DNA of 44,296 nt, from the sequence record DRR723986_18853. The stretch is one strand, 5' to 3'. A program made the translations under genes and the position numbers. Numbering within the stretch: position 1 is the stretch's first letter; each line of letters begins with the position of its first letter. This document shows, one piece after another, positions 1 through 26,230 of the stretch. The notes under the pieces were generated by a model. The model did not search any database, was not told where the DNA came from, and saw nothing but the letters and a program-made list of their open reading frames with translations.

Positions 1-578
1 TAAATACATTACCTCAAAACCATATGGTTTCTGGTTATGCTGAAATGCTTAAACACGGTTTGATTAAAGATAAATTGTATTGGGAGCGATTGACAAATTT
101 AGAGCAAATGGATATTTCTGCTTTAGACCAATTGATTTATGATTCTGTTATTATTAAAAATAATATTGTCGGTGAAGACCCAACCGAACAAGGATTAAGA
201 AAAACATTAAATTTTGGACATACACTAGGTCATGCTATTGAAAGTTATTTTTTAGAGAATGCAGACAAAACACCTCTGTTACATGGTGAGGCAATTGCTG
301 TAGGCATGATCTTAGAAGCCTTTATTTCTTCAAAATTAACAGGTCTTAAAGTTGCAGAGTTAATCACAATTGCTAATGGAATTTCTAACTCGTTTGCTAA
401 GGTAGATTTTAATGAGAACGATCTAAAATTCATAATTGAATTACTTAAATACGATAAAAAGAATAGCCACGGTGTGGTTAAATTTGTTTTACTTGAGTCT
501 ATAGGAAAAGCTAAAATAGATTGTGAAGTTAGTAATGACTTAATTTTGGAAGCCTTTAAGTATTATCAATCTGTTTAA
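1..578 (+). CDS. aroB: 3-dehydroquinate synthase, C-terminal part (gene runs off the window start)
   Basis: Motifs GYAEMLKHG, LNFGHTLGHAIE, LLHGEAIAVGM, DKKN. The frame is open from position 3 (NTLPQNHMVSG), so the ATG at 24 is internal. Confidence 0.95.
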   Translation, partial: NTLPQNHMVSGYAEMLKHGLIKDKLYWERLTNLEQMDISALDQLIYDSVIIKNNIVGEDPTEQGLRKTLNFGHTLGHAIESYFLENADKTPLLHGEAIAVGMILEAFISSKLTGLKVAELITIANGISNSFAKVDFNENDLKFIIELLKYDKKNSHGVVKFVLLESIGKAKIDCEVSNDLILEAFKYYQSV

Positions 579-1090
579 AGATATCTTTCTCTAATTATTT
601 GGTTATGATGATTCTCATGACCTGTAATGATATAACCAATAGCTCTCACTGAAATTTTAGAACCACTCGCCTCGCCTAATAATTTGAGTGTACTTTCACT
701 AAAACTCTCAAATAATGCTATGGTTGCTTTTCTAACAGTTATATATTCAGATATTAAACTGTCCATTGTTCTTTCGTTAGCAACACCTGAAGCTACATAA
801 TTATCTTGATCAAAACCTGCCATTGGTGTTGAATCTTTTCTGGATATACGTAATGCTCTGTAAGCAAAAATGCGTTCTGTATCAATAATGTGTAATAATA
901 TATCCTTTACAGTCCATTTGCCAGCAGCATAAGCGTAGTTATGTTTTTCTGATTCTATATTAGAATAAAATTCAACTACAGAATCTAAATTATCTTTCAA
1001 TCCCAATACTATATTGGAATTTGACGCTATATCTATATAAGATTTATAATAGGGATTATATTCTGCAGTATTTAGTGAATCAGAAATCAT
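575..1090 (-). CDS. DinB/YfiT-family protein
   Basis: YAAGKWTVKDILLHIIDTERIFAYRAL, GFDQD and C-terminal GHENHH metal-site motifs. Confidence 0.85.
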   Translation of the reverse strand: MISDSLNTAEYNPYYKSYIDIASNSNIVLGLKDNLDSVVEFYSNIESEKHNYAYAAGKWTVKDILLHIIDTERIFAYRALRISRKDSTPMAGFDQDNYVASGVANERTMDSLISEYITVRKATIALFESFSESTLKLLGEASGSKISVRAIGYIITGHENHHNQIIRERYL

Positions 1091-3174: not shown

Positions 3175-3536
3175 ACTCGAGTGATTTTACTAAACGACTT
3201 CAAAAAGTCATTGATTTTTACGATGAAACAGCATCTAGTTTTGCCGAAAAAATTGGAGTACAACGGTCTAGTATTTCGCACATATTATCTGGCAGAAATA
3301 AACCCAGTTTAGATTTTGTAATGAAGGTTCTTCACTCCTATCCCGAAGTTGAATTATATTGGCTTTTAAATGGTAAGGGGCAATTTCCTAAAACCAATAA
3401 CCTATCAGAGGTGCCCGAATCTAATTTTTCTAAAGAAAAAAATACTCTAACTCCACCGAATGAATTTCAAGATTCAGAAATAGACAAGATTGTGATCTTT
3501 TATAAGAATGGGACTTTTAAGGGTTATAAGCCCTAA
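3168..3536 (+). CDS. XRE/HTH_3 transcriptional regulator
   Basis: SSFAEKIGVQRSSISHILSGRNKPSLDFV HTH, WLLNGKG, C-terminal IVIFYKNGTF. Confidence 0.9.
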   Translation: MINSSDFTKRLQKVIDFYDETASSFAEKIGVQRSSISHILSGRNKPSLDFVMKVLHSYPEVELYWLLNGKGQFPKTNNLSEVPESNFSKEKNTLTPPNEFQDSEIDKIVIFYKNGTFKGYKP

Positions 3537-3577
3537 AAATCACTTTTCTATTCATTATCTTTGTTAAAAGATATTTT

Positions 3578-3964
3578 ATGAAGCGTTTTTTTGTTGTTTT
3601 ATTTGCTCTTTTATTAATGGGATGCTATAATGTTGAACGTAATTGTTCAGATTTTAAAACAGGTACCTTTGAATTTAATTACACAATTGATGGAATTGAA
3701 AAAACAGGCAAATTTACACGCACAGAGTCTTACAATATTGATTATTACGAAGGTAAAATAGATTCGTCTTCAATACGTTGGATAAACGACTGTGAGTTTA
3801 TTTTAAAAAAACTCAATCCTAAGAGTAATTCAGAAAAAAACGCTATACACATGAAAATTCTGACTACCACAGAGAATTCATATACTTTTGAATATAAGCT
3901 CGCCGTAAAAAAGCCAAATAAACCACTTAATGTACAGAAAGGAATAGCAACTAAGATCGATTAA
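3578..3964 (+). CDS. Conserved hypothetical lipoprotein
   Basis: Lipobox LLMGC; CSDFKTGTF and IRWINDCE motifs; TATCTTTG -7 promoter element at 3556-3563. Confidence 0.7.
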   Translation: MKRFFVVLFALLLMGCYNVERNCSDFKTGTFEFNYTIDGIEKTGKFTRTESYNIDYYEGKIDSSSIRWINDCEFILKKLNPKSNSEKNAIHMKILTTTENSYTFEYKLAVKKPNKPLNVQKGIATKID

Positions 3965-4761: not shown

Positions 4762-5576
4762 TGTTACGAACCAACTATATTTTGCTCTTAGTTATTCTAT
4801 CAATACTGAGTTTTAGCTGTAAAAAAGATTCTCCGACATTACAAAATCATACGATTTTAGACCCTTCAAAACAATATGATGTTATTATAATGGCAGGACA
4901 ATCTAACATGGTTGGATTGGGGAAATTAGAAGAGCTAGTCAATGACACTATCCCAAATAATGTAGTTTATTTTAACCATGGTACAGACACCGAATTTAAG
5001 GTTTTAGAAAGCACATTTGGACCAGAAGTTAGTCTATCTCAATATTTAAAAAACAGATTTCCTGAACGAAATTTTATTTTAGTTAAATATGCAATTGGTG
5101 GATCTTCAATTAAAGATTGGATATCTCTAAATGAAGAAAATAATATTAAATCGTCACCACTATTCGATAAGTTAATTGATTACACTGAAGAAAACTTAAA
5201 AGGCCAAAAATACCAAGTACGTGCCTTGTTATGGTCACAAGGCGAAACAGAAGCTTTATCCGATGAATTAAGCCTTAACTATGGAAACTATTTTTCCAAA
5301 TTAATTGAGAAATTCAGATTAAATTTTAATGATAACAATTTACCTGTAATTTACACAGAGATATCAGCAAAGGCAGTTAAACCAAGTGCAAAAGAAATTT
5401 TGAACAAGTCTTTGTTTAATATTTCTAAAACTATCCATAAAACCTATTTCACCAGAACCAAGGATTTAAAATTGAAGTCTGATAGCTTGCATTATTCTAA
5501 TTCTGCATTGCTAAAATTAGGTGAGCGATTTGGAACTATATTGGAGAATGTTTTAGTATTAGAACGTGATAATTAG
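4761..5576 (+). CDS. Sialate O-acetylesterase-like (SASA/CE6-type SGNH) lipoprotein
   Basis: Lipobox SFSC; AGQSNM, FGPE, WSQGE and DSLH motifs. Confidence 0.85.
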   Translation: MLRTNYILLLVILSILSFSCKKDSPTLQNHTILDPSKQYDVIIMAGQSNMVGLGKLEELVNDTIPNNVVYFNHGTDTEFKVLESTFGPEVSLSQYLKNRFPERNFILVKYAIGGSSIKDWISLNEENNIKSSPLFDKLIDYTEENLKGQKYQVRALLWSQGETEALSDELSLNYGNYFSKLIEKFRLNFNDNNLPVIYTEISAKAVKPSAKEILNKSLFNISKTIHKTYFTRTKDLKLKSDSLHYSNSALLKLGERFGTILENVLVLERDN

Positions 5577-5684
5577 TCCTCTTAACTAAAATTTTAATGA
5601 TTATTGTGCTTAGAAATATACCAATTCCTATATTTCTCGAATATTTAAGAAATATATTAGCCCAAATCTATAAATAAGTAAGTA

Positions 5685-7133
5685 ATGCTATTTAATTCAA
5701 TAGACTTTGCAATATTCCTACCAGTGGTTTTTATTCTATATTGGTTTTTTTGCCAAAAGAATTTAAAGCTTCAAAACTTACTTATTGTTGTAGCCAGTTA
5801 TGTTTTTTACGGTTGGTGGGACTGGCGATTTCTATCACTTATTATATTCAGCACCATTGTAGATTTTACAATAGGTAGATTACTTTTAAAAGAAGAAAAA
5901 CAGTCTAAAAGAAAAGTTTTTCTTTGGATAAGTATTTTAGTAAACCTCGGATTTTTAGGGTTTTTCAAGTATTACAACTTTTTTCTAGACAATCTTGTAG
6001 AGTCATTCCGCTTATTTGGTGCAGAATTAAACGCAACCTCACTACAGGTTATATTACCTGTTGGTATTAGTTTCTATACCTTTCAAACACTTAGTTACAC
6101 CATTGATGTGTACAGGCGTAAATTAGAACCAACTAACAATTTCGTTGTCTTTGCTGCATTTGTTAGCTTTTTTCCACAATTAGTAGCTGGTCCTATTGAG
6201 AGAGCAACGAATTTATTACCTCAGTTCTACACAAAACGAAATTTCAACTATCATAAAGCAGTTGACGGTTTAAAACAAATCCTTTGGGGAATGTTTAAAA
6301 AAGTGGTCATTGCAGACAATTGTGCGGAATTCGCAAATGAATTTTTTAATAATTCTGACGCTTATGGAGGTAGTGGACTACTACTCGGAGCTTTATTTTT
6401 TACATTTCAAATTTATGGTGACTTTTCTGGTTATTCTGATATAGCTATTGGTACATCTCGATTATTCGGATTTAATTTAATGCAAAATTTTGCATTCCCT
6501 TATTTTTCAAGAGATATTGCTGAATTTTGGAGACGTTGGCACATTTCATTATCTACCTGGTTTAGAGACTATTTGTACATACCTCTAGGAGGAAGTCGCG
6601 GTGGTACAGCGATGAAAGTTAGAAATACATTTATCATTTTTATTGTAAGTGGTTTTTGGCATGGCTCTAACTGGACCTTTATTGTTTGGGGAGCTCTAAA
6701 TGCTATTTACTTTTTACCGCTATTACTGACTAGTCTTAATAGAAATAACATTGGTATTGCTGCAGAAGGCAAACTAATACCTTCACTTAAGACCATCGCT
6801 AGTATTTTAATAACATTTGGATTAACCGTTATAGCTTGGATCTTCTTTAGAGCGGATTCAGTCGCTCATGCAATTAGTTATTTAAAAGGGATTTTTTCGC
6901 AAAGTTTGTTTTCAATACCTGAGTTTGAAAATAGAACGCATGCAATAGAAGTACTAATTTTAATAGGATTCTTATTGTTTATTGAATGGTTAGGCAGAGA
7001 AAATCAATATGGTATTGAAAAATTAGGATTCAGTTGGAATAGAAATCTAAGAATAGGCTTTTATTTAGTTATTGTTTGTTTAATTTTCTTGTTCATTGGT
7101 AAGGAGCAAGAATTTATATATTTCCAGTTTTAG
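5685..7133 (+). CDS. MBOAT family O-acyltransferase (AlgI/PatA/DltB-like)
   Basis: MLFNS start, LPVGISFYTFQ, FFPQLVAGPIER, DFSGYSDIAIG, EFWRRWHISLSTWFRDY, GFWHG, C-terminal FIYFQF. Confidence 0.95.
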   Translation: MLFNSIDFAIFLPVVFILYWFFCQKNLKLQNLLIVVASYVFYGWWDWRFLSLIIFSTIVDFTIGRLLLKEEKQSKRKVFLWISILVNLGFLGFFKYYNFFLDNLVESFRLFGAELNATSLQVILPVGISFYTFQTLSYTIDVYRRKLEPTNNFVVFAAFVSFFPQLVAGPIERATNLLPQFYTKRNFNYHKAVDGLKQILWGMFKKVVIADNCAEFANEFFNNSDAYGGSGLLLGALFFTFQIYGDFSGYSDIAIGTSRLFGFNLMQNFAFPYFSRDIAEFWRRWHISLSTWFRDYLYIPLGGSRGGTAMKVRNTFIIFIVSGFWHGSNWTFIVWGALNAIYFLPLLLTSLNRNNIGIAAEGKLIPSLKTIASILITFGLTVIAWIFFRADSVAHAISYLKGIFSQSLFSIPEFENRTHAIEVLILIGFLLFIEWLGRENQYGIEKLGFSWNRNLRIGFYLVIVCLIFLFIGKEQEFIYFQF

Positions 7134-7134
7134 C

Positions 7135-8100
7135 ATGAAAGAGTTTATTAAAAAAATTATAAGTTTTCATGTCATTGCACTAATCGCAATAGTACTTATT
7201 GTGCTACTAGTGAATTTTGTTGTAAAATCTAAAGCTAGTTTTAAAATTAGTGAAGAAAAGTCAACCTTAATAATTGGGCATTCGCACTCTGCATGTTCAC
7301 TAAATGACTCTATCGTAAAGAATTCAATAAATTTATCAGGTTCGGGAGAGTCCTACTTTTATAATTACCAGAAGGCAAAACAATTACTAGCAGATAACGA
7401 TCATATAAAAACTGTCTTTATTGAGTTTACCAACAATCAGGTAGATAGCGTTATGGATGACTGGATTTGGAGTTATGAAAAAATGTCTTATTTCCTTCCG
7501 TTTTATAGTCCATTTATGGAGCGTGAAGAGTTTGAGTTATTATTTAAAAACAACTCTACAGACTTAATGTCTAGTTACTCTGTGGCAACACGTAAAAATT
7601 TGTTTAGAATAATTAAAAGTGATTATAGTTATATTGACGAGTTAGGCGGATATGACCCTACGAAACTTAGCAAAATTGATGAAATGATAGAAAACAATAG
7701 AGTTGAACCTATTATTTCATCTAGCCATACATTATCGCAGAAAAATATAAACTATTTAAGAAAAATGGTGGATTTATTTAAGGCAAATAAAACAGATGTT
7801 TTCTTAATAAGAAGTCCGCAGCATCCTATTTATCCTGATACAAGTAACGAAAAAGTATTTAAAGGTGTACTGAATGATCAGTTTAATGATGTGCCCTTTT
7901 TAGACTTTGATGTTATGGATTTTCCTAATAGCCATTATTTAGATCCTCAACATTTAAATTATGAAGGCGCTAAAGACTTTTCAATTCTGTTTAACACACT
8001 AATTCAAAATGGATTATTAAAGTCTGTCAACAAGCAACAGATCATTGATAATGCTATCCGTCAGTTTAATACTGAAAACCCTTTAAACCGTTTAAAATAA
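7135..8100 (+). CDS. Membrane-anchored SGNH-like protein (AlgJ/DltD-like MBOAT partner)
   Basis: ATG at 7135 one base after the MBOAT stop; N-terminal TM; IIGHSH (GxS) and DPQHLN (DxxH) motifs. Confidence 0.65.
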   Translation: MKEFIKKIISFHVIALIAIVLIVLLVNFVVKSKASFKISEEKSTLIIGHSHSACSLNDSIVKNSINLSGSGESYFYNYQKAKQLLADNDHIKTVFIEFTNNQVDSVMDDWIWSYEKMSYFLPFYSPFMEREEFELLFKNNSTDLMSSYSVATRKNLFRIIKSDYSYIDELGGYDPTKLSKIDEMIENNRVEPIISSSHTLSQKNINYLRKMVDLFKANKTDVFLIRSPQHPIYPDTSNEKVFKGVLNDQFNDVPFLDFDVMDFPNSHYLDPQHLNYEGAKDFSILFNTLIQNGLLKSVNKQQIIDNAIRQFNTENPLNRLK

Positions 8101-19387: not shown

Positions 19388-20341
19388 ATGAAAGTATTAG
19401 CAAATGACGGAGTTTCTGAAAGTGGTATTAAAGCACTAGAAGCTGCTGGTTACGAAGTTATAACAACAACTGTTGCACAAGAACAATTAGGAAATTACAT
19501 TAATGAGAATAATATTGATGTCCTACTTGTAAGAAGTGCGACAACAGTTAGAAAAAATATTATTGACAATTGCCCGAGCTTAAAAGTAATTGGTCGTGGT
19601 GGTGTTGGTATGGACAATATTGACGTAGAGTACGCACGTAGTAAGGGATTACACGTTATTAACACTCCAGCTGCATCTTCACATTCAGTAGCTGAATTGG
19701 TATTCGGACATTTTTATGGTTTAGCACGTTTTTTACATAACTCTAATAGAGATATGCCATTAGAAGGAGATGCTAACTTTAAAGCACTTAAAAAAGCCTA
19801 TGCCAAGGGAACCGAGTTAAAAGGTAAAACATTAGGTGTTTTAGGTTTTGGCCGAATAGGTCAAGCTACTGCTAAAGTAGCCATTGGAGCTGGTATGAAA
19901 GTTGTGGCTTACGATCCATTTATGGAAAAAGCTAATTTAGAATTAGAATTCTTTGACGGACAAAAAGTGAATTTTGAAATAAAAACAGTTTCGAAGGAAG
20001 AAGTTCTAAAGCAAGCAGATTTCTTGACATTACATGTACCAGCACAAAAAGAATATGTTATTGATGAGAAGGAATTCAATCAAATGAAAGATGGTGTTAT
20101 TTTAGCTAATGCAGCACGTGGTGGTGTAATTAACGAGGTAGCCCTTGTAAAAGCTATTGAAAGTGGTAAAGTTGCAAGAGCTGCCTTAGACGTTTTTGAA
20201 AAAGAACCAAAACCAGAAGTTCAGCTATTAATGAATCCTGCGTTATCCTTAACACCGCATACTGGTGCAGCTACAAACGAAGCACAAGACAGAATTGGTA
20301 CCGAGCTAGCAGAACAGATTATTAGTATATTAGGAAAATAA
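19388..20341 (+). CDS. serA: D-3-phosphoglycerate dehydrogenase (short type, no ACT domain)
   Basis: GRGGVGMDNID, GFGRIG, NAARGGV, TPHTGAAT; directly after serC. Confidence 0.88.
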   Translation: MKVLANDGVSESGIKALEAAGYEVITTTVAQEQLGNYINENNIDVLLVRSATTVRKNIIDNCPSLKVIGRGGVGMDNIDVEYARSKGLHVINTPAASSHSVAELVFGHFYGLARFLHNSNRDMPLEGDANFKALKKAYAKGTELKGKTLGVLGFGRIGQATAKVAIGAGMKVVAYDPFMEKANLELEFFDGQKVNFEIKTVSKEEVLKQADFLTLHVPAQKEYVIDEKEFNQMKDGVILANAARGGVINEVALVKAIESGKVARAALDVFEKEPKPEVQLLMNPALSLTPHTGAATNEAQDRIGTELAEQIISILGK

Positions 20342-20356
20342 TTGTGACCTAAAGCT

Positions 20357-20391
20357 AAAAAAAGAGTCCTACTTATGTTAGGACTTTTTTT
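20357..20391 (+). terminator. Intrinsic terminator after serC-serA
   Basis: AGTCCTA-loop-TAGGACT followed by a T-run. Confidence 0.75.
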
Positions 20392-20432
20392 GTACTCTGA
20401 AAAACACAATTATTAACTTAAACTTTATAAAA

Positions 20433-21068
20433 GTGGAAGGAATTTTAGACTTATTAAACAGTGATTTAGGAAAAACTATAATAAGCGGTGTTTCTGGTTC
20501 CACAGGAACAGATCAAAATAAAACAAGCAGCGTATTAACTATGGCTTTACCAGTACTTATGAAAGCTATGGAACGTAATGCAAGTACACCTGAAGGCGCA
20601 CAAGGACTTACAGGAGCTTTAAACAGTAAACACGATGGTAGTATCTTAGATAACTTAGGAAGTCTATTTGGTGGTGGAGTTGATGATGAAGTTAAAACTG
20701 ATGGTGAAAAGATTCTAGGTCACGTACTAGGTCAGAAGAAACAAGGAGTTGAACAAGTTATTGGATAAAAAGCGGGATTAGATACTGGTTCTGTTGCTAA
20801 TATTTTAAAAGTAGCTGCACCAATTCTTATGGGAGTATTAGGAAAACAAGCCCGACAAAATAATGTCTCTTCTCAAAATGACTTAGGTGGACTCTTAGGA
20901 CGATTACTTGGAGGTAATGATACACATCAAGAGCAAAGTTTCTTGGAGAAAATATTAGATGCCGATGGTGATGGTAGCGTAATTGATGACGTTGCAGGTA
21001 TGGTACTTGGTGGAGCTAAGAAAAAAGGCGGACTAGGTGGTTTACTAGGTGGATTATTTGGTAAATAA
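20433..21068 (+). pseudogene. DUF937-like protein interrupted by an in-frame TAA
   Basis: ORFs 20433-20768 and 20829-21068 are in the same frame; reading through TAA 20766-20768 gives continuous ...EQVIG*KAGLDTGSVANILKVAAPILMGVLGK...LDADGDGSVIDD. Confidence 0.85.
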
Positions 21069-21086
21069 ACCTTAACATATATATGT

Positions 21087-21117
21087 AAAAAGCAGCTCTA
21101 ATTGAGCTGCTTTTTTT
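21087..21117 (+). terminator. Intrinsic terminator
   Basis: AAAAAGCAGCTC-taatt-GAGCTGCTTTTTTT. Confidence 0.9.
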
Positions 21118-21280
21118 ATAACTATTAATAAGTAAACTTCCTGAAATACCATATTTACTCATTGAGGCAAACACTTTACTAAATTACAGTTTTACAACTC
21201 CATAACTTAGACGTCATTTGTAATGCAAAATGAAACTATATAACTAATTACACTTATAAATTTTTAATATCTTTAGTATT

Positions 21281-21715
21281 ATGAAAAAGCTTATACCCTT
21301 TGTTATTATTCTAGCTTTAATTGCTAGTTGCAAATCTTACAATACAAACCAAACCATTAATAATGATGATAATGGTTTAATACAAAGTGATACTGTTTCA
21401 ATTAGTAGTGATGAAACGGATTACGAAATTATCATCATAGAACCTGGTTTTAATCAATGGTTAGTGGGAACAGCCAGACCCAGAGGATTTCATTCTCAAG
21501 AGTTTTTAGAGACCAGAAATGCACTTTTGGTTCAGGCATGGAATCAACGTAACCTGCAACCTCAAGTTTATGACCCTAACTTGTATGAATTGCACATAGA
21601 CTATGACACTCGGACTGATTATGGCTATGAGGTTAACTACAAACTCTACAATTATTTTATCTTTTTTCAATTAAAATATAATCAACGCCTCACCTCTTTC
21701 GTTCCTAGAATTTAA
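21281..21715 (+). CDS. Conserved Bacteroidota lipoprotein (DUF6146-like)
   Basis: Lipobox IASC; YEIIIIEPGF and DYGYEVNYKLYNYF motifs. Confidence 0.75.
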   Translation: MKKLIPFVIILALIASCKSYNTNQTINNDDNGLIQSDTVSISSDETDYEIIIIEPGFNQWLVGTARPRGFHSQEFLETRNALLVQAWNQRNLQPQVYDPNLYELHIDYDTRTDYGYEVNYKLYNYFIFFQLKYNQRLTSFVPRI

Positions 21716-21742
21716 TGTAAATTTGTAGCACTGTTTAGTGCT

Positions 21743-22237
21743 ATGGAAAAATTTAAAAAACATTGGGAAATTCAACACAATTGGCAGTTGATATTTCCCT
21801 TTTTAGGTATTATAATTTTAGGCTATTCTGCATTTAAAATTTCAAATGCTCTATTACATAACTATGGATTGGTATTTATTATTATTGGTACCCTTATCAT
21901 CTCTTACCTCCTTTTAAAATTCACTTTATTCTTATTTAAAAAATTAGAAAAAAAGTGGATATTAGATAATAAATGGGAAATGATTCGTGTATTTATAGTT
22001 TTTGCCGTTACTGGTTCTTCATCATTGTACGTGGGTAGACCCATAATTAAACTTATGGGAATTACTAAAGAAAACTTAAACCCTGTTATTTACTGGATAT
22101 TATTCATTATTATTGGGCTCATTTTCTACCAAATTCTATTAGTAACTTTCGGTTGGCTTTTTGGTCAGTTTAAATTTTTCTGGGAATTTGAAAAGAAAAT
22201 GCTAAGACGAATGGGTTTAAAACGCTTTTTAGATTGA
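21743..22237 (+). CDS. Conserved membrane protein (DUF6787-like)
   Basis: Four TM segments; VFAVTGSSS and GQFKFFWEFEKKM motifs; TAAATTTG -7 element at 21718-21725. Confidence 0.75.
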   Translation: MEKFKKHWEIQHNWQLIFPFLGIIILGYSAFKISNALLHNYGLVFIIIGTLIISYLLLKFTLFLFKKLEKKWILDNKWEMIRVFIVFAVTGSSSLYVGRPIIKLMGITKENLNPVIYWILFIIIGLIFYQILLVTFGWLFGQFKFFWEFEKKMLRRMGLKRFLD

Positions 22238-22575
22238 ACTTAAAAATCTTAATATCTGCATTTTTTAGAGTAGTTGCTTTTGTTTTAACACTGGCAGTAT
22301 TACTACCTTCTGCGGTAAAACTAAATCACGTATTTACACATCATGAGCATGAAGTTTGTGAAAATGATGGTACTAATACAACACACTTTCATGAAACAGA
22401 TTTAGATTGTGAATTTTATAAATTTAAATTAACAAAAACCTACTATCTAGATCTTAATCCGGTAAACGAAACTTCTAAAATATTCAATAATAAGACTGAA
22501 GTGTCTTATTATTTATTTCTTAGAACGCATAAAGAAAATAATTCTTATCTAAGAGGTCCACCGGCTTTAGTCTAA
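22234..22575 (+). CDS. His/Cys-rich exported leader protein with C-terminal RGPP (putative ribosome-arrest regulator, CruR/DUF2946-like)
   Basis: TTG start overlapping the upstream TGA; hydrophobic residues ~5-28; HVFTHHEHEVC...HFHETDLDC; ends YLRGPPALV; 78 nt upstream of a TonB-dependent transporter gene. Confidence 0.75.
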   Translation: MNLKILISAFFRVVAFVLTLAVLLPSAVKLNHVFTHHEHEVCENDGTNTTHFHETDLDCEFYKFKLTKTYYLDLNPVNETSKIFNNKTEVSYYLFLRTHKENNSYLRGPPALV

Positions 22576-22653
22576 TTAACTACGCATTAAGATTAGACAT
22601 ACTATTGATTTAAATATCACATTTATTTCAATTATTAACATTATTCATATTAG

Positions 22654-25053
22654 ATGAGAGCTTGTGCTTTTATAGTACTTTTTATATTACCGTTTTTTGG
22701 ATTTTCACAACAGTGTGATGCTGTATTTCTAGGAGAAATAAAAGATTTTCACGACAATACTCCTATTGCTGGTGCAACTGTGTACATCAAAAATCTTGAT
22801 AAATACAAAGCTTCAGATGAAAATGGGAAATTTAAAATAGAGAATCTTTGCAAAGGTCAAATTACATTAGTGATATCGCACATTGGTTGCGATACCAAAA
22901 CAGTAACATATACTATTGATGGTGATGTTTTTAAGACTATTGTATTAGAACACCATATAGAAGAACTCAATGAAGTTTCGGTAAAAACGACTTTAGCCAA
23001 AAAAGAAACAACGACAGCACAAGAAACGGTTTTAAAGTCTAATGTTATAAGAAAATATAGTAATCAGAGTTTGGGAGATGCTTTAAAAGAAGTACCTGGT
23101 GTATCTTCTATTAATACAGGAAATGCTATTGTTAAGCCAATGATTAACGGCATGCACAGTAGTCGTTTACTTATTTTAAATAATAATGTGAGACTACAAG
23201 ATCAGGAATGGGGAATTGAGCATGCACCGAATATAGACATTAATAGTGCTAATCAGATTTCTGTAATAAAAGGTTCTGGCGCCTTAGCTTATGGAGGTGA
23301 TGCCGTTGGTGGTGTTGTGGTTATTAAACCAGCGAAAACGTACCTCATAGACTCGCTCTTTGGTAAAACCGTATTTGGTGGACAAACGAATGGACGTGGA
23401 TATAATGTAAGTACATCGCTGAACAAATCGTTCACTTCAGGATGGTTTGCCAGTATTCAAGGTTCTATTAAAAAGAATGGCGATTTTGAAACACCAGACT
23501 ATGTGCTTACCAATACTGGTTTAAAATCTAATAGTGTGACGCTTCAAGCTGGTAAAAAAACGTTTGAGAGTGGTTTTGAAGTTTATTACAATTACCTCTT
23601 TAATGAAATTGGAATTTTGAGAGCGTCACATATTGGTAATATTGCAGATTTGGTAACAGCGATTAATACTCAGGAACCTTTAGTCATTGAAGATTTTAGC
23701 TATGATATCAACTCACCAAAACAAGAGGTGACGCATCACTTGGTGAAAGCGCTGTATTATAAACGTTTTAAGAATTTTGGTAAGTTAAATTTACAATACG
23801 ACTACCAAAATAACCAACGTTTTGAGTACGATATACGAGTTGGAGATGATAGAAATAAAGCCGCTTTAGATCTAAACCTTCAAACGCATACATTAATGGC
23901 AGATGTTCAGTTAGACGCTAATTCAAAACGAAAAATTAATTTTGGAATTTTAGGAAGGTATCAAAATAACTTTGCTAATCCAGATACTGGTGTAAGACGA
24001 TTAATTCCAGATTATGACAAATATGATTTAGGAACTTATGCGACTTCAGAATGGGAATTAAATAATAATACCACTATCGATGCAGGTCTGAGATATGATT
24101 TTAACAGAATTGATGCTAAAAAATTCTATCAAACAAGTCGTTGGGAAGAACGTGGCTATGATGAGGACTTTGCAGATTTGGTTATTGATGACTTAGGAAC
24201 GCAATTACTCACAAACCCTGTATTCGATTATCATAACCTATCGGCTGCAGCTGGTATTTCTTATGAAATAAATACAGAAAATAGCATCATTGCCAATTAC
24301 AGCCTATCTAGCAGACCTCCAAATCCATCGGAGTTATTTAGCGATGGCTTACACCACTCTGCTGCACGAATAGAGTTAGGTGATTTAAGATTAGGGCAAG
24401 AGATCTCAAATCGGTTTGCTACAAGCTATAATCTTAAAAAAGACAATTTCAATGTGCAATTGGAAGTATTCTATAACAGAATCAATGATTTTATGTATCT
24501 AAGACCTACAGGTATTGAGCAAACTATTAGAGGTGCCTTTCCTGTATGGGAGTTTGAAAAAATCGATGCTGCACTTTATGGTATCGATCTTTCTGCTAAT
24601 TACACGATTACAGATCAGGTGCAATGGTATAATAAATCATCGTACACCAAAGGAGATGATATTAAAGAGAATATTAATCTAATCGATATTCCTGCATTTA
24701 ATACCATAAATACAATAACCTATAGCAATGAGAATTGGAATAGTTTTTCGGCCAGTTTAAAATCAGAGTGGGTTTTTGAACAAAACAATTATCCTGATTT
24801 TAATTTTGAAACCTACATCGCTGCAACAGATGAAATGGTTTTGGTAGATATTAGTACACCACCACCAGCATTTCATTTGTTACATTTTTACAGCGAAGCC
24901 ACCTTCAATCTTAGTGAAAACACCGATTTAAATATTGGGTTAAGTGTAAACAATATTTTTAATACAAGCTACAGAGCTTACTTAAACCGACTACGTTATT
25001 TTGCTGATGACTTAGGAAGAAATATTACTTTACAATTACAAATAAATTATTAA
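22654..25053 (+). CDS. TonB-dependent outer-membrane transporter, probably for a metal
   Basis: Signal peptide, N-terminal CarboxypepD_reg-like domain, plug motifs LGDALKEVPGVS and ISVIKGSGALAYGGDAVGGVV, GLHHSAARIE loop, C-terminal GRNITLQLQINY. Confidence 0.93.
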   Translation: MRACAFIVLFILPFFGFSQQCDAVFLGEIKDFHDNTPIAGATVYIKNLDKYKASDENGKFKIENLCKGQITLVISHIGCDTKTVTYTIDGDVFKTIVLEHHIEELNEVSVKTTLAKKETTTAQETVLKSNVIRKYSNQSLGDALKEVPGVSSINTGNAIVKPMINGMHSSRLLILNNNVRLQDQEWGIEHAPNIDINSANQISVIKGSGALAYGGDAVGGVVVIKPAKTYLIDSLFGKTVFGGQTNGRGYNVSTSLNKSFTSGWFASIQGSIKKNGDFETPDYVLTNTGLKSNSVTLQAGKKTFESGFEVYYNYLFNEIGILRASHIGNIADLVTAINTQEPLVIEDFSYDINSPKQEVTHHLVKALYYKRFKNFGKLNLQYDYQNNQRFEYDIRVGDDRNKAALDLNLQTHTLMADVQLDANSKRKINFGILGRYQNNFANPDTGVRRLIPDYDKYDLGTYATSEWELNNNTTIDAGLRYDFNRIDAKKFYQTSRWEERGYDEDFADLVIDDLGTQLLTNPVFDYHNLSAAAGISYEINTENSIIANYSLSSRPPNPSELFSDGLHHSAARIELGDLRLGQEISNRFATSYNLKKDNFNVQLEVFYNRINDFMYLRPTGIEQTIRGAFPVWEFEKIDAALYGIDLSANYTITDQVQWYNKSSYTKGDDIKENINLIDIPAFNTINTITYSNENWNSFSASLKSEWVFEQNNYPDFNFETYIAATDEMVLVDISTPPPAFHLLHFYSEATFNLSENTDLNIGLSVNNIFNTSYRAYLNRLRYFADDLGRNITLQLQINY

Positions 25054-25078
25054 CAAAAACACAATTAAAATTATACAT

Positions 25079-25636
25079 ATGAAAACTTTTAAATACCTCT
25101 TAATATTATTTTTATCATTAGGCCTTTTCGCATCTTGTAGTGACGACGATGACCCAGATCCGGTAAATGAAGAAGAAGTGATAACAACAGTTACGCTGAC
25201 TTTATCTCCACAAGGTGGTGGTACCTCTGTAGTTTTTCAATCTAGAGATGCTGATGGTGATGGACCAGACGCTCCGGTTATTACCGTAACAGGTGATCTT
25301 ATGGCAAATACGCAATACTCAGGTACTGTAGAATTTTTAAATGAATTAGAGACACCTGCAGAAGATATCACAACGGAAGTACTAGAAGAAGGTGATGAAC
25401 ATCAGGTGTTTTACAGCTTTACGGGTACAGCTGGCAGCACAATAATCTACGAAGATATAGATCAAGATAGTAACCCAATTGGTGTTAGCATCTCCTTAAA
25501 TTCTGGTGCGGCTGCAGACAATAATACAATGACTTTAGTGCTAAGGCACGAACCAACAAAACCAAATAATGGTACAGCTGCAGATGCAGGTGGAGAAACA
25601 GATGTAGAGGCTACGTTTTCGTATAACGTCAACTAA
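25079..25636 (+). CDS. Acidic surface lipoprotein co-transcribed with the transporter
   Basis: Lipobox FASC followed by SDDDD (Bacteroidota surface-export-like); EEEVITTV, EHQVFY, LRHEP, GETDVE. Confidence 0.8.
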   Translation: MKTFKYLLILFLSLGLFASCSDDDDPDPVNEEEVITTVTLTLSPQGGGTSVVFQSRDADGDGPDAPVITVTGDLMANTQYSGTVEFLNELETPAEDITTEVLEEGDEHQVFYSFTGTAGSTIIYEDIDQDSNPIGVSISLNSGAAADNNTMTLVLRHEPTKPNNGTAADAGGETDVEATFSYNVN

Positions 25637-25654
25637 GTTTTTACTATAAAGAAT

Positions 25655-25683
25655 AAAAAAGCACTCGTTTGAGTGCTTTTTTT
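25655..25683 (+). terminator. Intrinsic terminator closing the transporter operon
   Basis: AAAAAAGCACTC-gttt-GAGTGCTTTTTTT. Confidence 0.9.
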
Positions 25684-25762
25684 GTGTTTATTATTTAATT
25701 TTTTAGAAGAAAGCACGCTTAAAATTAGCTTATATTTGTACATTCAAATTGAGTTCAAAGAA

Positions 25763-26230
25763 ATGACTGAAATTGATTTTGCTTTAGATCAAAACAAGGA
25801 AACTGACATTATAGAATTAGTTGGTACCGTTGTTTGGAATAAAGCAAATGCAATTGAAACATTTCAGAAATTATCTGAAGCAGAACGCCATTTTGTCTTT
25901 ATTGATATTTTTGAAAGTGAAATTAACAATGAAGGTCTGTATGGATTTTTCTATAATACGTCTGGCGAATTTGCTCACGAAGTTTTACAAGCATACGTTA
26001 CTATCAATGCTTCTGAAACAGCTAACATAATAGACAAAGCAATAAGACGATTTAAAGAACTACCAGTACCAAAGGATATTATTGCGCGCAGACAACTGAT
26101 AGGGAAATTACAAATGGAAGATTTAGAAAGCTGGTCTAACTTAGAGCTAGATTTAATAAATTCTAAAGAAAACATTCTCGATTTAACAATTGCTTACATT
26201 AAATTACATAAAACTGAATTTGAATATTAG
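25763..26230 (+). CDS. DUF4375/DMP19-family acidic protein
   Basis: FESEINNEGLYGFFYNTSGE resembles the EVxNGGFxQFFxNSSG motif; ATG at 25763 follows TATATTTG at 25731-25738. Confidence 0.75.
   Translation: MTEIDFALDQNKETDIIELVGTVVWNKANAIETFQKLSEAERHFVFIDIFESEINNEGLYGFFYNTSGEFAHEVLQAYVTINASETANIIDKAIRRFKELPVPKDIIARRQLIGKLQMEDLESWSNLELDLINSKENILDLTIAYIKLHKTEFEY

Follow-up and report, generated by a model that had tools for sequence, protein, structure and literature searches.

What part is played by the 113-codon gene that lies between a DUF6787 membrane-protein gene and the gene for a TonB-dependent transporter in sequence record DRR723986_18853? We analyzed a 44,296-nt stretch of this record, referred to here as the window, with positions counted from its first letter. 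The results indicate that this gene probably encodes an arrest peptide that serves as a regulatory leader of the downstream TonB-dependent transporter, with metal sensing of the CruR/CutF type and with the stalled ribosome as the state in which the transporter is turned on. Conservation, geometry and synteny, together with a covarying RNA hairpin, lend strong support to its reading as an arrest leader. In most of the flavobacteria sampled, the leader probably switches receptor synthesis according to metal supply.

Translation bore out the anatomy given in a preliminary description of this DNA, namely a 113-residue open reading frame (ORF) with an N-terminal transmembrane (TM) segment, six His residues, Cys42, Cys59 and a terminal LRGPP, each at the position assigned to it. 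The only possible in-frame start is the TTG at 22234. The His residues are at 32, 36, 37, 39, 51 and 53 and the two Cys residues are 17 apart, with no CxxC present (C59 is followed by EFY). An F-Y-K-F-K block stands after Cys59, then a featureless stretch, and the protein ends L-R-G-P-P-A-L-V-stop.

A conserved RGPP motif at a fixed distance from a His/Cys cluster

The leader is a real and widespread gene. Of 308 candidates from a word-indexed search, 304 were relatives at E <= 0.01, those with a name being mostly Winogradskyella, and a profile search of 1.84 billion cluster representatives gave 697 matches at E <= 0.001. Six-frame searching of 401 genomes sampled from the family of G001, the genome behind locus L027, found a leader match in 275, nearly always in single copy. 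No Pfam or NCBIfam model matched the leader, and a metagenome scan for closer relatives with the spacer type of the window found nothing above 54% identity. For comparison of whole loci, 80 of 196 confirmed genome loci were kept, giving 81 with the window.

R-x-P-P is the most conserved feature of the leader protein. It is present in all 81 loci, as RGPP in 79 loci and the window and as RAPP in L064. Among 149 representatives, which leave out P0071 because it was already counted, a core no more than 12 residues from the end was found as RGPP in 119, RAPP in 23, RSPP in 1 and RRPP in 1. The remaining five comprise three that end or diverge after F-Y-K-F-K, one with KAPP and one with RGPP placed 17 residues from the end. 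Metagenome loci gave a similar picture, with 52 RGPP, 1 RAPP and 1 RRPP in 54. The Arg, Gly and Pro codons of the core differ synonymously among loci; thus, selection acts on the peptide and not on the DNA.

In ten major bacterial groups, no tetrapeptide is more under-represented than RGPP, and RGPP and RAPP give the most robust, EF-P-resistant arrest, with RSPP partly permissive (PMC12992588; this source, PMC9426467, PMC9973294 and bioRxiv 10.1101/2025.02.05.636593 are cited for the portions of each available to us). The substitutions seen in the leader core would all fall within the arrest-competent set. A local count of RGPP/RAPP depletion gave 0 xGPP and 1 xAPP in 220,227 residues of 660 locus ORFs, numbers too low to be informative. 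In toeprints of CruR and ApdA, the third codon of the motif occupies the P site and the fourth the A site (PMC12992588). By analogy, the P site of the predicted stall would be occupied by the codon for Pro109 (22558-22560) and its A site by that for Pro110 (22561-22563).

Spacing is as constant as the motif. In A3, an alignment of 129 diverse leader sequences, the residues between Cys59 and Arg107 number 47 in 117 sequences, 48 in nine and 46 in three, and all 54 metagenome loci in which both motifs were recognized have 47. The spacer of about 48 residues that had been described is therefore present and fixed, although its count is 47. The tail after PP is three residues long in 105 of 144 motif-bearing representatives. 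Only P25, R107, P109 and P110 are invariant in A3, and H32, C42, H51, H53, C59 and L106 are each at least 90% conserved. Mean information in the same alignment is 4.16 bits for the RGPP core (107-110), 2.31 bits for the His/Cys block (32-65), 0.94 bits for the linker (66-95) and 1.54 bits for the eleven residues before the core (96-106), which are a candidate tunnel-contacting part. The preliminary description had suggested asking whether the His/Cys cluster, spacer length, R[G/A]PP and downstream transporter are conserved together, and all are kept in homologues. Motif, position and transporter neighbor recur in every intact homologous locus examined, which places the observation beyond chance.

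AlphaFold2, run with 129 sequences, modeled leader residues 2-35 as one helix with a predicted local distance difference test (pLDDT) score of 85-96 and gave no fold beyond; the lowest scores, 49-54, fall over residues 41-60. Lack of a confident fold for the soluble part in a model without metal fits a ligand-dependent domain but is no proof of one. Under the positive-inside rule, the periplasm is the side on which the His/Cys block would lie.

A covarying hairpin between the leader tail and the transporter start

How might a ribosome held at the end of the leader affect the next gene? Minimum free energy (MFE) folds of every locus contain an A/U-rich hairpin, the 5' arm of which consists of the tail codons and stop and the 3' arm of which lies in the spacer before the transporter. 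The best stem averages 8.5 bp, versus 6.6 bp in shuffled spacers. When the tail was folded with its own spacer, the mean stem was 9.1 bp versus 6.8 bp with a swapped one; stems of at least 9 bp formed in 34 of 60 native pairs versus 10% of swaps, and 26 of the 60 were above their own 95th percentile.

Covariation was assessed in a MAFFT alignment of all 45 loci that combine a 33-42 nt spacer with a tail of three codons. In this alignment, 77.3% of cells pair in a 10-pair helix, compared with 29-47% when the partner strand is slid. Seven of the ten pairs change on both sides, and two-sided changes occupy 43 cells versus 14.9 +/- 4.0 in shuffles, none of 500 of which reached the score. A chosen set of 29 of these loci was 88.3% paired, and two-sided changes were seen in 5 of 10 pairs. 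With numbering that begins at the first base of the Arg codon, the 5' arm of the helix comprises nucleotides 15-24 and the P site nucleotides 7-9; most of this arm would be in the mRNA channel of a stalled ribosome. In most loci with a short spacer, 5-13 nt separate the end of the 3' arm from the transporter AUG. This covarying hairpin, with a 5' arm made of the codons after PP and the stop, is new here, as is the overlap of leader and DUF6787 gene described below.

The energetic effect of a stall was modeled by forcing a footprint of -14 to +16 around the P site to be unpaired and calculating the cost of opening the start region (-18 to +12). Over 81 loci, the footprint lowers the opening energy by a mean of 2.9 kcal/mol; shifted 33 nt upstream, it does so by 0.1 kcal/mol (Wilcoxon 5e-11). 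The mean effect is 3.6 kcal/mol in the 57 loci with spacers of 50 nt or less, compared with 0.31 kcal/mol for a mock footprint placed at 85 further gene junctions in the same loci (Mann-Whitney 8e-14). At least four start-region bases are expected to pair with the footprint in 50 of the 57 short-spacer loci. As predicted by these models, a ribosome stalled at RGPP would open the hairpin between the tail codons and the transporter start.

In the window, the fold of RNA 22522-22690 reaches -29.6 kcal/mol (z = -3.0), a stability that 0 of 200 shuffles match. An 11-bp helix joins the codons just before RGPP to the transporter start region, and a hairpin begins at the Val codon; both are present in the MFE and centroid structures (Table 1). 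The window AUG pairs with 22546-22548 at P = 0.95, inside the predicted footprint.

A near-perfect 15-nt palindrome of the ACTATAA-T-TTATAGT type ends 2 nt before the transporter ATG in the long-spacer loci L003, L018, L024, L027, L039 and L058 and is not present before the ATG in the window. It may form a local hairpin or serve as a binding site for a protein. MAFFT alignment A2, of the long-spacer subgroup, contains the palindrome in some loci and no structure in common with the window.

Gene neighborhood and layout of the locus

Is the leader tied to its neighbors? Neighbors were counted by tblastn with the window proteins against the 80 genome loci. The transporter lies directly after the leader in 80 of 80, DUF6787 is upstream in 79, DUF6146 is upstream in 78 and the lipoprotein is found in 66. 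The spacer between leader and transporter is 25-123 nt in all 81 loci, 33-44 nt in most and 78 nt in the window. In 11 loci, the same leader precedes a second transporter class, which is 25-27% identical to that of the window and has no lipoprotein; in these loci, the leader has been kept while the receptor was exchanged. Both classes are relatives of ZnuD/heme receptors and fall below all curated cut-offs. Against the ZnuD model NF038289 (cut-off 950 bits), the window transporter scores 86.4 bits and the L006 class 187.4 bits, which marks them as relatives only, and the best solved relative of the window transporter by sequence is ZnuD 4rdr (E 2.4e-13), over the plug region only.

The transporter is visible in 47 of 58 metagenome loci. 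Of the 11 without it, six have no more than 121 nt after the leader and two have 415-497 nt; in one of these two, L121, the next ORF starts transporter-like when read by eye. In L131, L132 and L137, another gene lies downstream and the leader is cut right after F-Y-K-F-K, with no RGPP. These loci retain DUF6787 and the TM and His/Cys half of the leader, and the next gene is alkaline-phosphatase-like or FabH-like. Transporter and RGPP half have been lost together here, an outcome that a single deletion would also give.

On the upstream side, each of the 80 loci scored (79 loci and the window) has its leader start -5 to +6 nt from the DUF6787 stop. In 57, the junction is a TTGA overlap as in the window, and the rest have ATG or GTG starts that share or abut the DUF6787 stop. 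Leader and DUF6787 gene thus form a coupled pair, with the leader as its second cistron, an arrangement that the preliminary description had overlooked. The non-ATG TTG start of the leader is conserved across Winogradskyella. DUF6787 and DUF6146 are likely parts of a metal-uptake unit.

Translation, domain matches and a terminator scan corroborated the transporter, acidic lipoprotein and terminator that had been described downstream. The lipoprotein is modeled with a pLDDT of 88.7 and has many invariant Asp and Glu residues, with an acidic stretch right after the lipidated Cys. Its family has 2,490 matches at E <= 1e-5, a fold search gave no solved match at E <= 0.001, and Atlas places it in unnamed Bacteroidota clusters only. 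Public records name it 'type 1 periplasmic binding fold superfamily protein'; the predicted fold is a beta-sandwich. Possibly, it serves as a surface metal-capturing lid for the transporter.

Table 1. Features of the leader locus in the window and, in the last two rows, in homologous loci.
Feature	Position	Strand	Basis or remark
Candidate Bacteroidota-type -7 box (TAnnTTTG)	21718..21725	+	18 nt before DUF6787 start
DUF6787 membrane-protein gene	21743..22237	+	PF20584, E 2.1e-27; TGA stop overlaps leader TTG (TTGA)
Leader ORF, 113 aa, TTG start	22234..22575	+	translation and homologues
N-terminal signal-anchor, residues 2-31	22237..22326	+	K4 and R12 before hydrophobic core 13-28; invariant P25
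His/Cys cluster and F-Y-K-F-K block, residues 32-65	22327..22428	+	H32, H36, H37, H39, C42, H51, H53, C59
Linker, residues 66-106, variable in sequence, fixed in length	22429..22551	+	last ~11 residues moderately conserved
5' strand of 11-bp helix pairing with transporter start region	22542..22552	+	MFE and centroid; pair probabilities 0.51-0.95
RGPP arrest core, R107-G108-P109-P110	22552..22563	+	predicted stall site, by analogy
Tail codons A-L-V and TAA stop (22573-22575)	22564..22575	+	translation
Hairpin 1, 8 bp	22570..22598	+	5' arm is Val codon, stop and 2 nt; 3' arm intergenic; counterpart covaries in relatives
3' strand of 11-bp helix	22650..22660	+	includes transporter AUG 22654-22656; AUG paired at P = 0.99 in free RNA
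TonB-dependent transporter, 799 aa, putative ZnuD/heme-receptor type	22654..25053	+	CarbopepD_reg_2, Plug and barrel domains; below every curated cut-off
Acidic lipoprotein, 185 aa, predicted beta-sandwich	25079..25636	+	Cys20-SDDDD start; invariant His108 and His157
Bidirectional intrinsic terminator ending the unit	25655..25682	.	12-bp stem, then T-run
Second-class transporter loci (L006, L012, L013, L025, L034, L037, L046, L060, L068, L075, L079)	about 5390-7650 in each		
Truncated leaders	L137 about 3500-3750; L131 about 200-460; L132 about 530-790		

TAnnTTTG, which we take to be the Bacteroidota-type -7 promoter consensus, has its sole perfect match within 19500-22760 at the site in Table 1, with no -33 TTG at the usual distance. 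A sigma-70 promoter scan carried no signal, with 26 sites versus 29.1 in shuffles. The only Rfam match was a sub-threshold one to STnc40 on the terminator (29.9 bits versus a gathering score of 45), taken as chance. Two small Gly-rich ORFs upstream, 20433-20768 and 20829-21068, have no family match and are conserved in 73 and 72 of 80 loci, respectively, at 58-93% identity.

Metatranscriptome contigs from four libraries (coded runs X13, X16, X17 and X18) match 21000-25800 at 99-100% identity and show that the organism and locus are represented in environmental RNA libraries. Contigs bridge the DUF6787/leader overlap in two runs and the leader, spacer and transporter start in three (22494-22697, 22411-22730 and 22409-22694). 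They establish presence in RNA libraries and are not proof of a single transcript, since DNA carry-over is possible; likewise, the uncovered interval 21161-21804 is a gap not readable as a transcript start.

Proposed mechanism, alternatives and known systems

In the mechanism that we propose, the leader would be translated by coupling to the upstream DUF6787 gene, and its signal-anchor would direct the growing chain to the Sec translocon in an N-in, C-out orientation. The ribosome would stall at R107-G108-P109-P110, its P site occupied by Pro109 and its A site by Pro110-tRNA. Its mRNA channel would then hold the tail codons and stop, and in the window also the codons just before RGPP, bases that would otherwise pair around or just upstream of the transporter start. 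During the stall, the start region would be open and the transporter made; upon release, termination three codons later would allow the hairpin to re-form and initiation to be shut. The His6/Cys2 cluster, the presumed metal sensor, would at the stall be just out of the tunnel and translocon, at its fixed distance of 47 residues. Metal binding would fold the sensor, pull the chain and release the stall, and plentiful metal would in this way turn the importer off.

Zinc is the most likely metal, and is possibly the one sensed. A more specific proposal, which we hold tentatively and regard as possible but rather doubtful, is that the leader is a periplasmic zinc sensor: His6Cys2 would bind Zn2+ delivered by its own importer, fold and pull the chain out of the RGPP arrest, imposing negative feedback on Shine-Dalgarno-independent initiation, with DUF6787 as part of the same device.

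Several observations weigh against the arrest-leader reading or against parts of it. Taken singly, the stem reaches significance in only 27 of 81 loci (p <= 0.05 versus shuffled spacers), and folding energies ignore kinetics and trailing ribosomes. In the 24 long-spacer loci (57-123 nt), the opening effect has a mean of 1.2 and a median of 0.3 kcal/mol, with 1.5 kcal/mol for the window, and the start region pairs with the footprint in only six of the 24, the window among them. Even with the footprint imposed, the window AUG is still predicted to pair at P = 0.90 via weaker alternative partners. The arrest-hairpin model fits the family well and the window only moderately. Heme-type models fit the window transporter at least as well as zinc-type models, and the two Cys residues could form a periplasmic disulfide instead of binding metal. 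Literature searches gave no experimental study of stalling, metal binding or regulation in any Bacteroidota member. In CutF, metal prolongs the stall (PMC9973294); thus, the direction of control could be either way.

Alternatives that retain an arrest leader differ in its output, its logic or its signal. A stalled ribosome could act on transcription by blocking Rho or a termination/processing hairpin, with unmasking of the start secondary or absent. CruR works in this manner (PMC9426467), and both the weak unmasking predicted in the long-spacer subgroup of the window and the extra spacer hairpins of that subgroup would suit it. However, most spacers, at 33-44 nt, have little room for a Rho loading site and are A/U-rich rather than C-rich, no terminator-like site scored between leader and transporter, and a hairpin whose 3' arm reaches to 5-13 nt before the AUG in most short-spacer loci would act on initiation. 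We consider a transcriptional output unlikely. Quite unlikely, in our judgment, is a leader of opposite logic, in which periplasmic metal would delay export and prolong the stall, and metal or a metal-loaded ligand such as heme would induce the transporter. Importers of the ZnuD/heme-receptor type are normally repressed, not induced, by their substrate metal. Moreover, CruR, the one characterized leader before a TonB-dependent transporter, is metal-released. What speaks for the opposite logic is CutF, which senses periplasmic Cu in this way and melts a stem-loop shielding the next ribosome-binding site (PMC9973294; bioRxiv 10.1101/2025.02.05.636593); signal-anchor, membrane-adjacent sensor and stem-loop are shared with it.

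The leader might also monitor membrane insertion, secretion or disulfide formation rather than metal, with release through pulling by Sec or oxidation of Cys42-Cys59. Among RAPP/RGPP leaders, many are monitors of Sec/YidC, and some with Cys pairs precede Dsb/thioredoxin genes (PMC12992588); the flavobacterial leader has a signal-anchor and two nearly invariant Cys residues. The downstream gene, however, encodes a transporter and not a Sec, YidC or Dsb component, and four invariant or nearly invariant His residues would be left unexplained, making such a monitor the most improbable of the explanations considered. Finally, the gene product might be no regulator at all, but a stable accessory protein that is anchored in the inner membrane and binds metal in the periplasm, such as a chaperone to which the transporter passes metal, with RGPP serving a protein-protein contact. 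A conserved His/Cys cluster, a gene fixed between DUF6787 and the transporter, and three loci that keep the N-terminal half after loss of the transporter and C-terminal half would all be in keeping with an accessory protein. Yet invariance of the most avoided bacterial tetrapeptide (PMC12992588) three codons from the stop is hard to explain by binding, and its substitutions are apparently arrest-competent only. The linker, moreover, is unconserved and predicted to be unfolded, and the covarying hairpin links the tail codons to the start of the next gene. We regard an accessory protein as very unlikely.

The preferred reading, an arrest leader whose stall turns the transporter on, bears on a small group of established switches. 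Metal-responsive arrest peptides have so far been shown experimentally for copper only and in proteobacteria only (CruR, CutF). If the zinc reading is true, the leader, found in about two thirds of the genomes sampled from the family, would be the first arrest peptide to respond to zinc and also the first arrest switch to be characterized in Bacteroidota. The leader family offers a clean case, being mostly single-copy with an invariant core, a fixed molecular-ruler spacing and a covarying hairpin. It could show switches with other metals, control of initiation by a stalled ribosome without a Shine-Dalgarno sequence, and periplasmic sensing. From its sequence, a function is also proposed for a widespread unannotated gene without a Pfam or NCBIfam model.

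SecM-secA of Escherichia coli has a C-terminal RAGP arrest in an exported leader, and the stalled ribosome opens a helix hiding the downstream initiation region. SecM differs from the flavobacterial leader in that it monitors secretion, not metal, has another arrest context and precedes a Shine-Dalgarno-dependent gene. CutF of Rhodobacter capsulatus is a co-translationally exported sensor whose stall melts a stem-loop shielding the next ribosome-binding site and is prolonged by copper (PMC9973294). Common to CutF and the leader are an exported sensor with a metal site beside the signal, a Pro-rich C-terminal stall and, as predicted here, a stalled ribosome that would melt a stem-loop over the initiation region of the next gene. 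CutF controls a detoxifying oxidase and is stalled by copper, whereas here an importer follows and release by metal would be expected. In addition, CutF masks a Shine-Dalgarno sequence; no such sequence is evident here, and the hairpin covers roughly -12 to -21 of the AUG.

CruR (Bp2923) of Bordetella pertussis, a DUF2946/PF11162 protein, is an exported leader before a TonB-dependent transporter, with RAPP three residues before the stop and a conserved 45-residue spacing from sensor to core; its stall is required for expression and relieved by copper, and Rho-dependent termination occurs in a 162-bp spacer (PMC9426467). Likenesses are extensive. Both are small exported leaders directly before a TonB-dependent transporter operon, both have R-x-P-P three residues before the stop, and both hold a fixed spacing over a poorly conserved linker (45 in CruR, 47 in the flavobacterial leader). 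In both, a stall would be needed for downstream expression with metal as the releaser, which for the flavobacterial leader we infer. In contrast to CruR, the sensor here is His6 with two separated Cys residues rather than CxxC, the core is RGPP rather than RAPP, and the leader is a second, translationally coupled cistron. The spacer is A/U-rich, 25-123 nt and carries a start-masking hairpin, unlike the GC-rich, Rho-dependent spacer of CruR, and the metal is probably not copper.

The preliminary description had taken the leader for a CruR counterpart in which a His cluster replaces CxxC. Its anatomy and lack of CxxC agree with that view, but similarity to DUF2946, for which a profile comparison had been suggested, was not found. 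PF11162 did not match the window leader at E <= 1 or any of 38 members at E <= 10, and a six-frame scan of the leader-carrying genome G001 gave no hit at E <= 0.01. Alignment of A3 with a Bacteroidota DUF2946-like protein of L141 by hhalign gave a probability of 3% over the TM segment only, a weak test given its single-sequence template. Neither the CxxC nor the CxxxC copper motif of the DUF2946 family is in the window leader. Judged by sequence, the flavobacterial leader appears to be an analogue of DUF2946 and not a demonstrable family member. L141 and L142, from other Bacteroidota genomes, themselves contain leaders on the minus strand (about 1495-1926 in L141) with a weak likeness to DUF2946 (21.7-22.2 bits). 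These are His-rich with Cys motifs, end S-R-A-P-P plus two residues and represent another family of such leaders within the phylum.

Leaders of this general kind have been catalogued, Bacteroidota included, a point missing from the preliminary description. Ozturk et al. (2023) list 5,334 'CutF-like' proteins, 19% of them from Bacteroidota, with Cys, His or mixed sites and TonB-like neighbors (PMC9973294). The leader has the features by which that set was collected: fewer than 150 residues, PP among the final 15, a signal at the N terminus and, no more than 1000 nt downstream, a gene on the same strand (PMC9973294). Fujiwara et al. (2025) describe RAPP/RGPP small ORFs before TonB-dependent receptors throughout Gram-negative bacteria as a 'TonB-related' group (PMC12992588). 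Like those proteins, the leader has fewer than 300 residues, RGPP near its C terminus, a localization signal and a TonB-dependent receptor downstream, and like RAPP/RGPP arrest peptides generally, it combines a C-terminal core kept in homologues with an N-terminal anchor and a downstream gene on its own strand. The study of Fujiwara et al. is a census based on motif and annotation, and the portions of it available to us contain no flavobacterial member, sensor motif, hairpin or family definition (PMC12992588). With the kind already catalogued (PMC9973294, PMC12992588), novelty is lower than the preliminary description implied. Collectively, the flavobacterial leader is a well-supported new example of a leader class known from bioinformatic catalogues, with a lineage-specific His6Cys2 sensor, coupling to DUF6787 and masking of a start that lacks a Shine-Dalgarno sequence.

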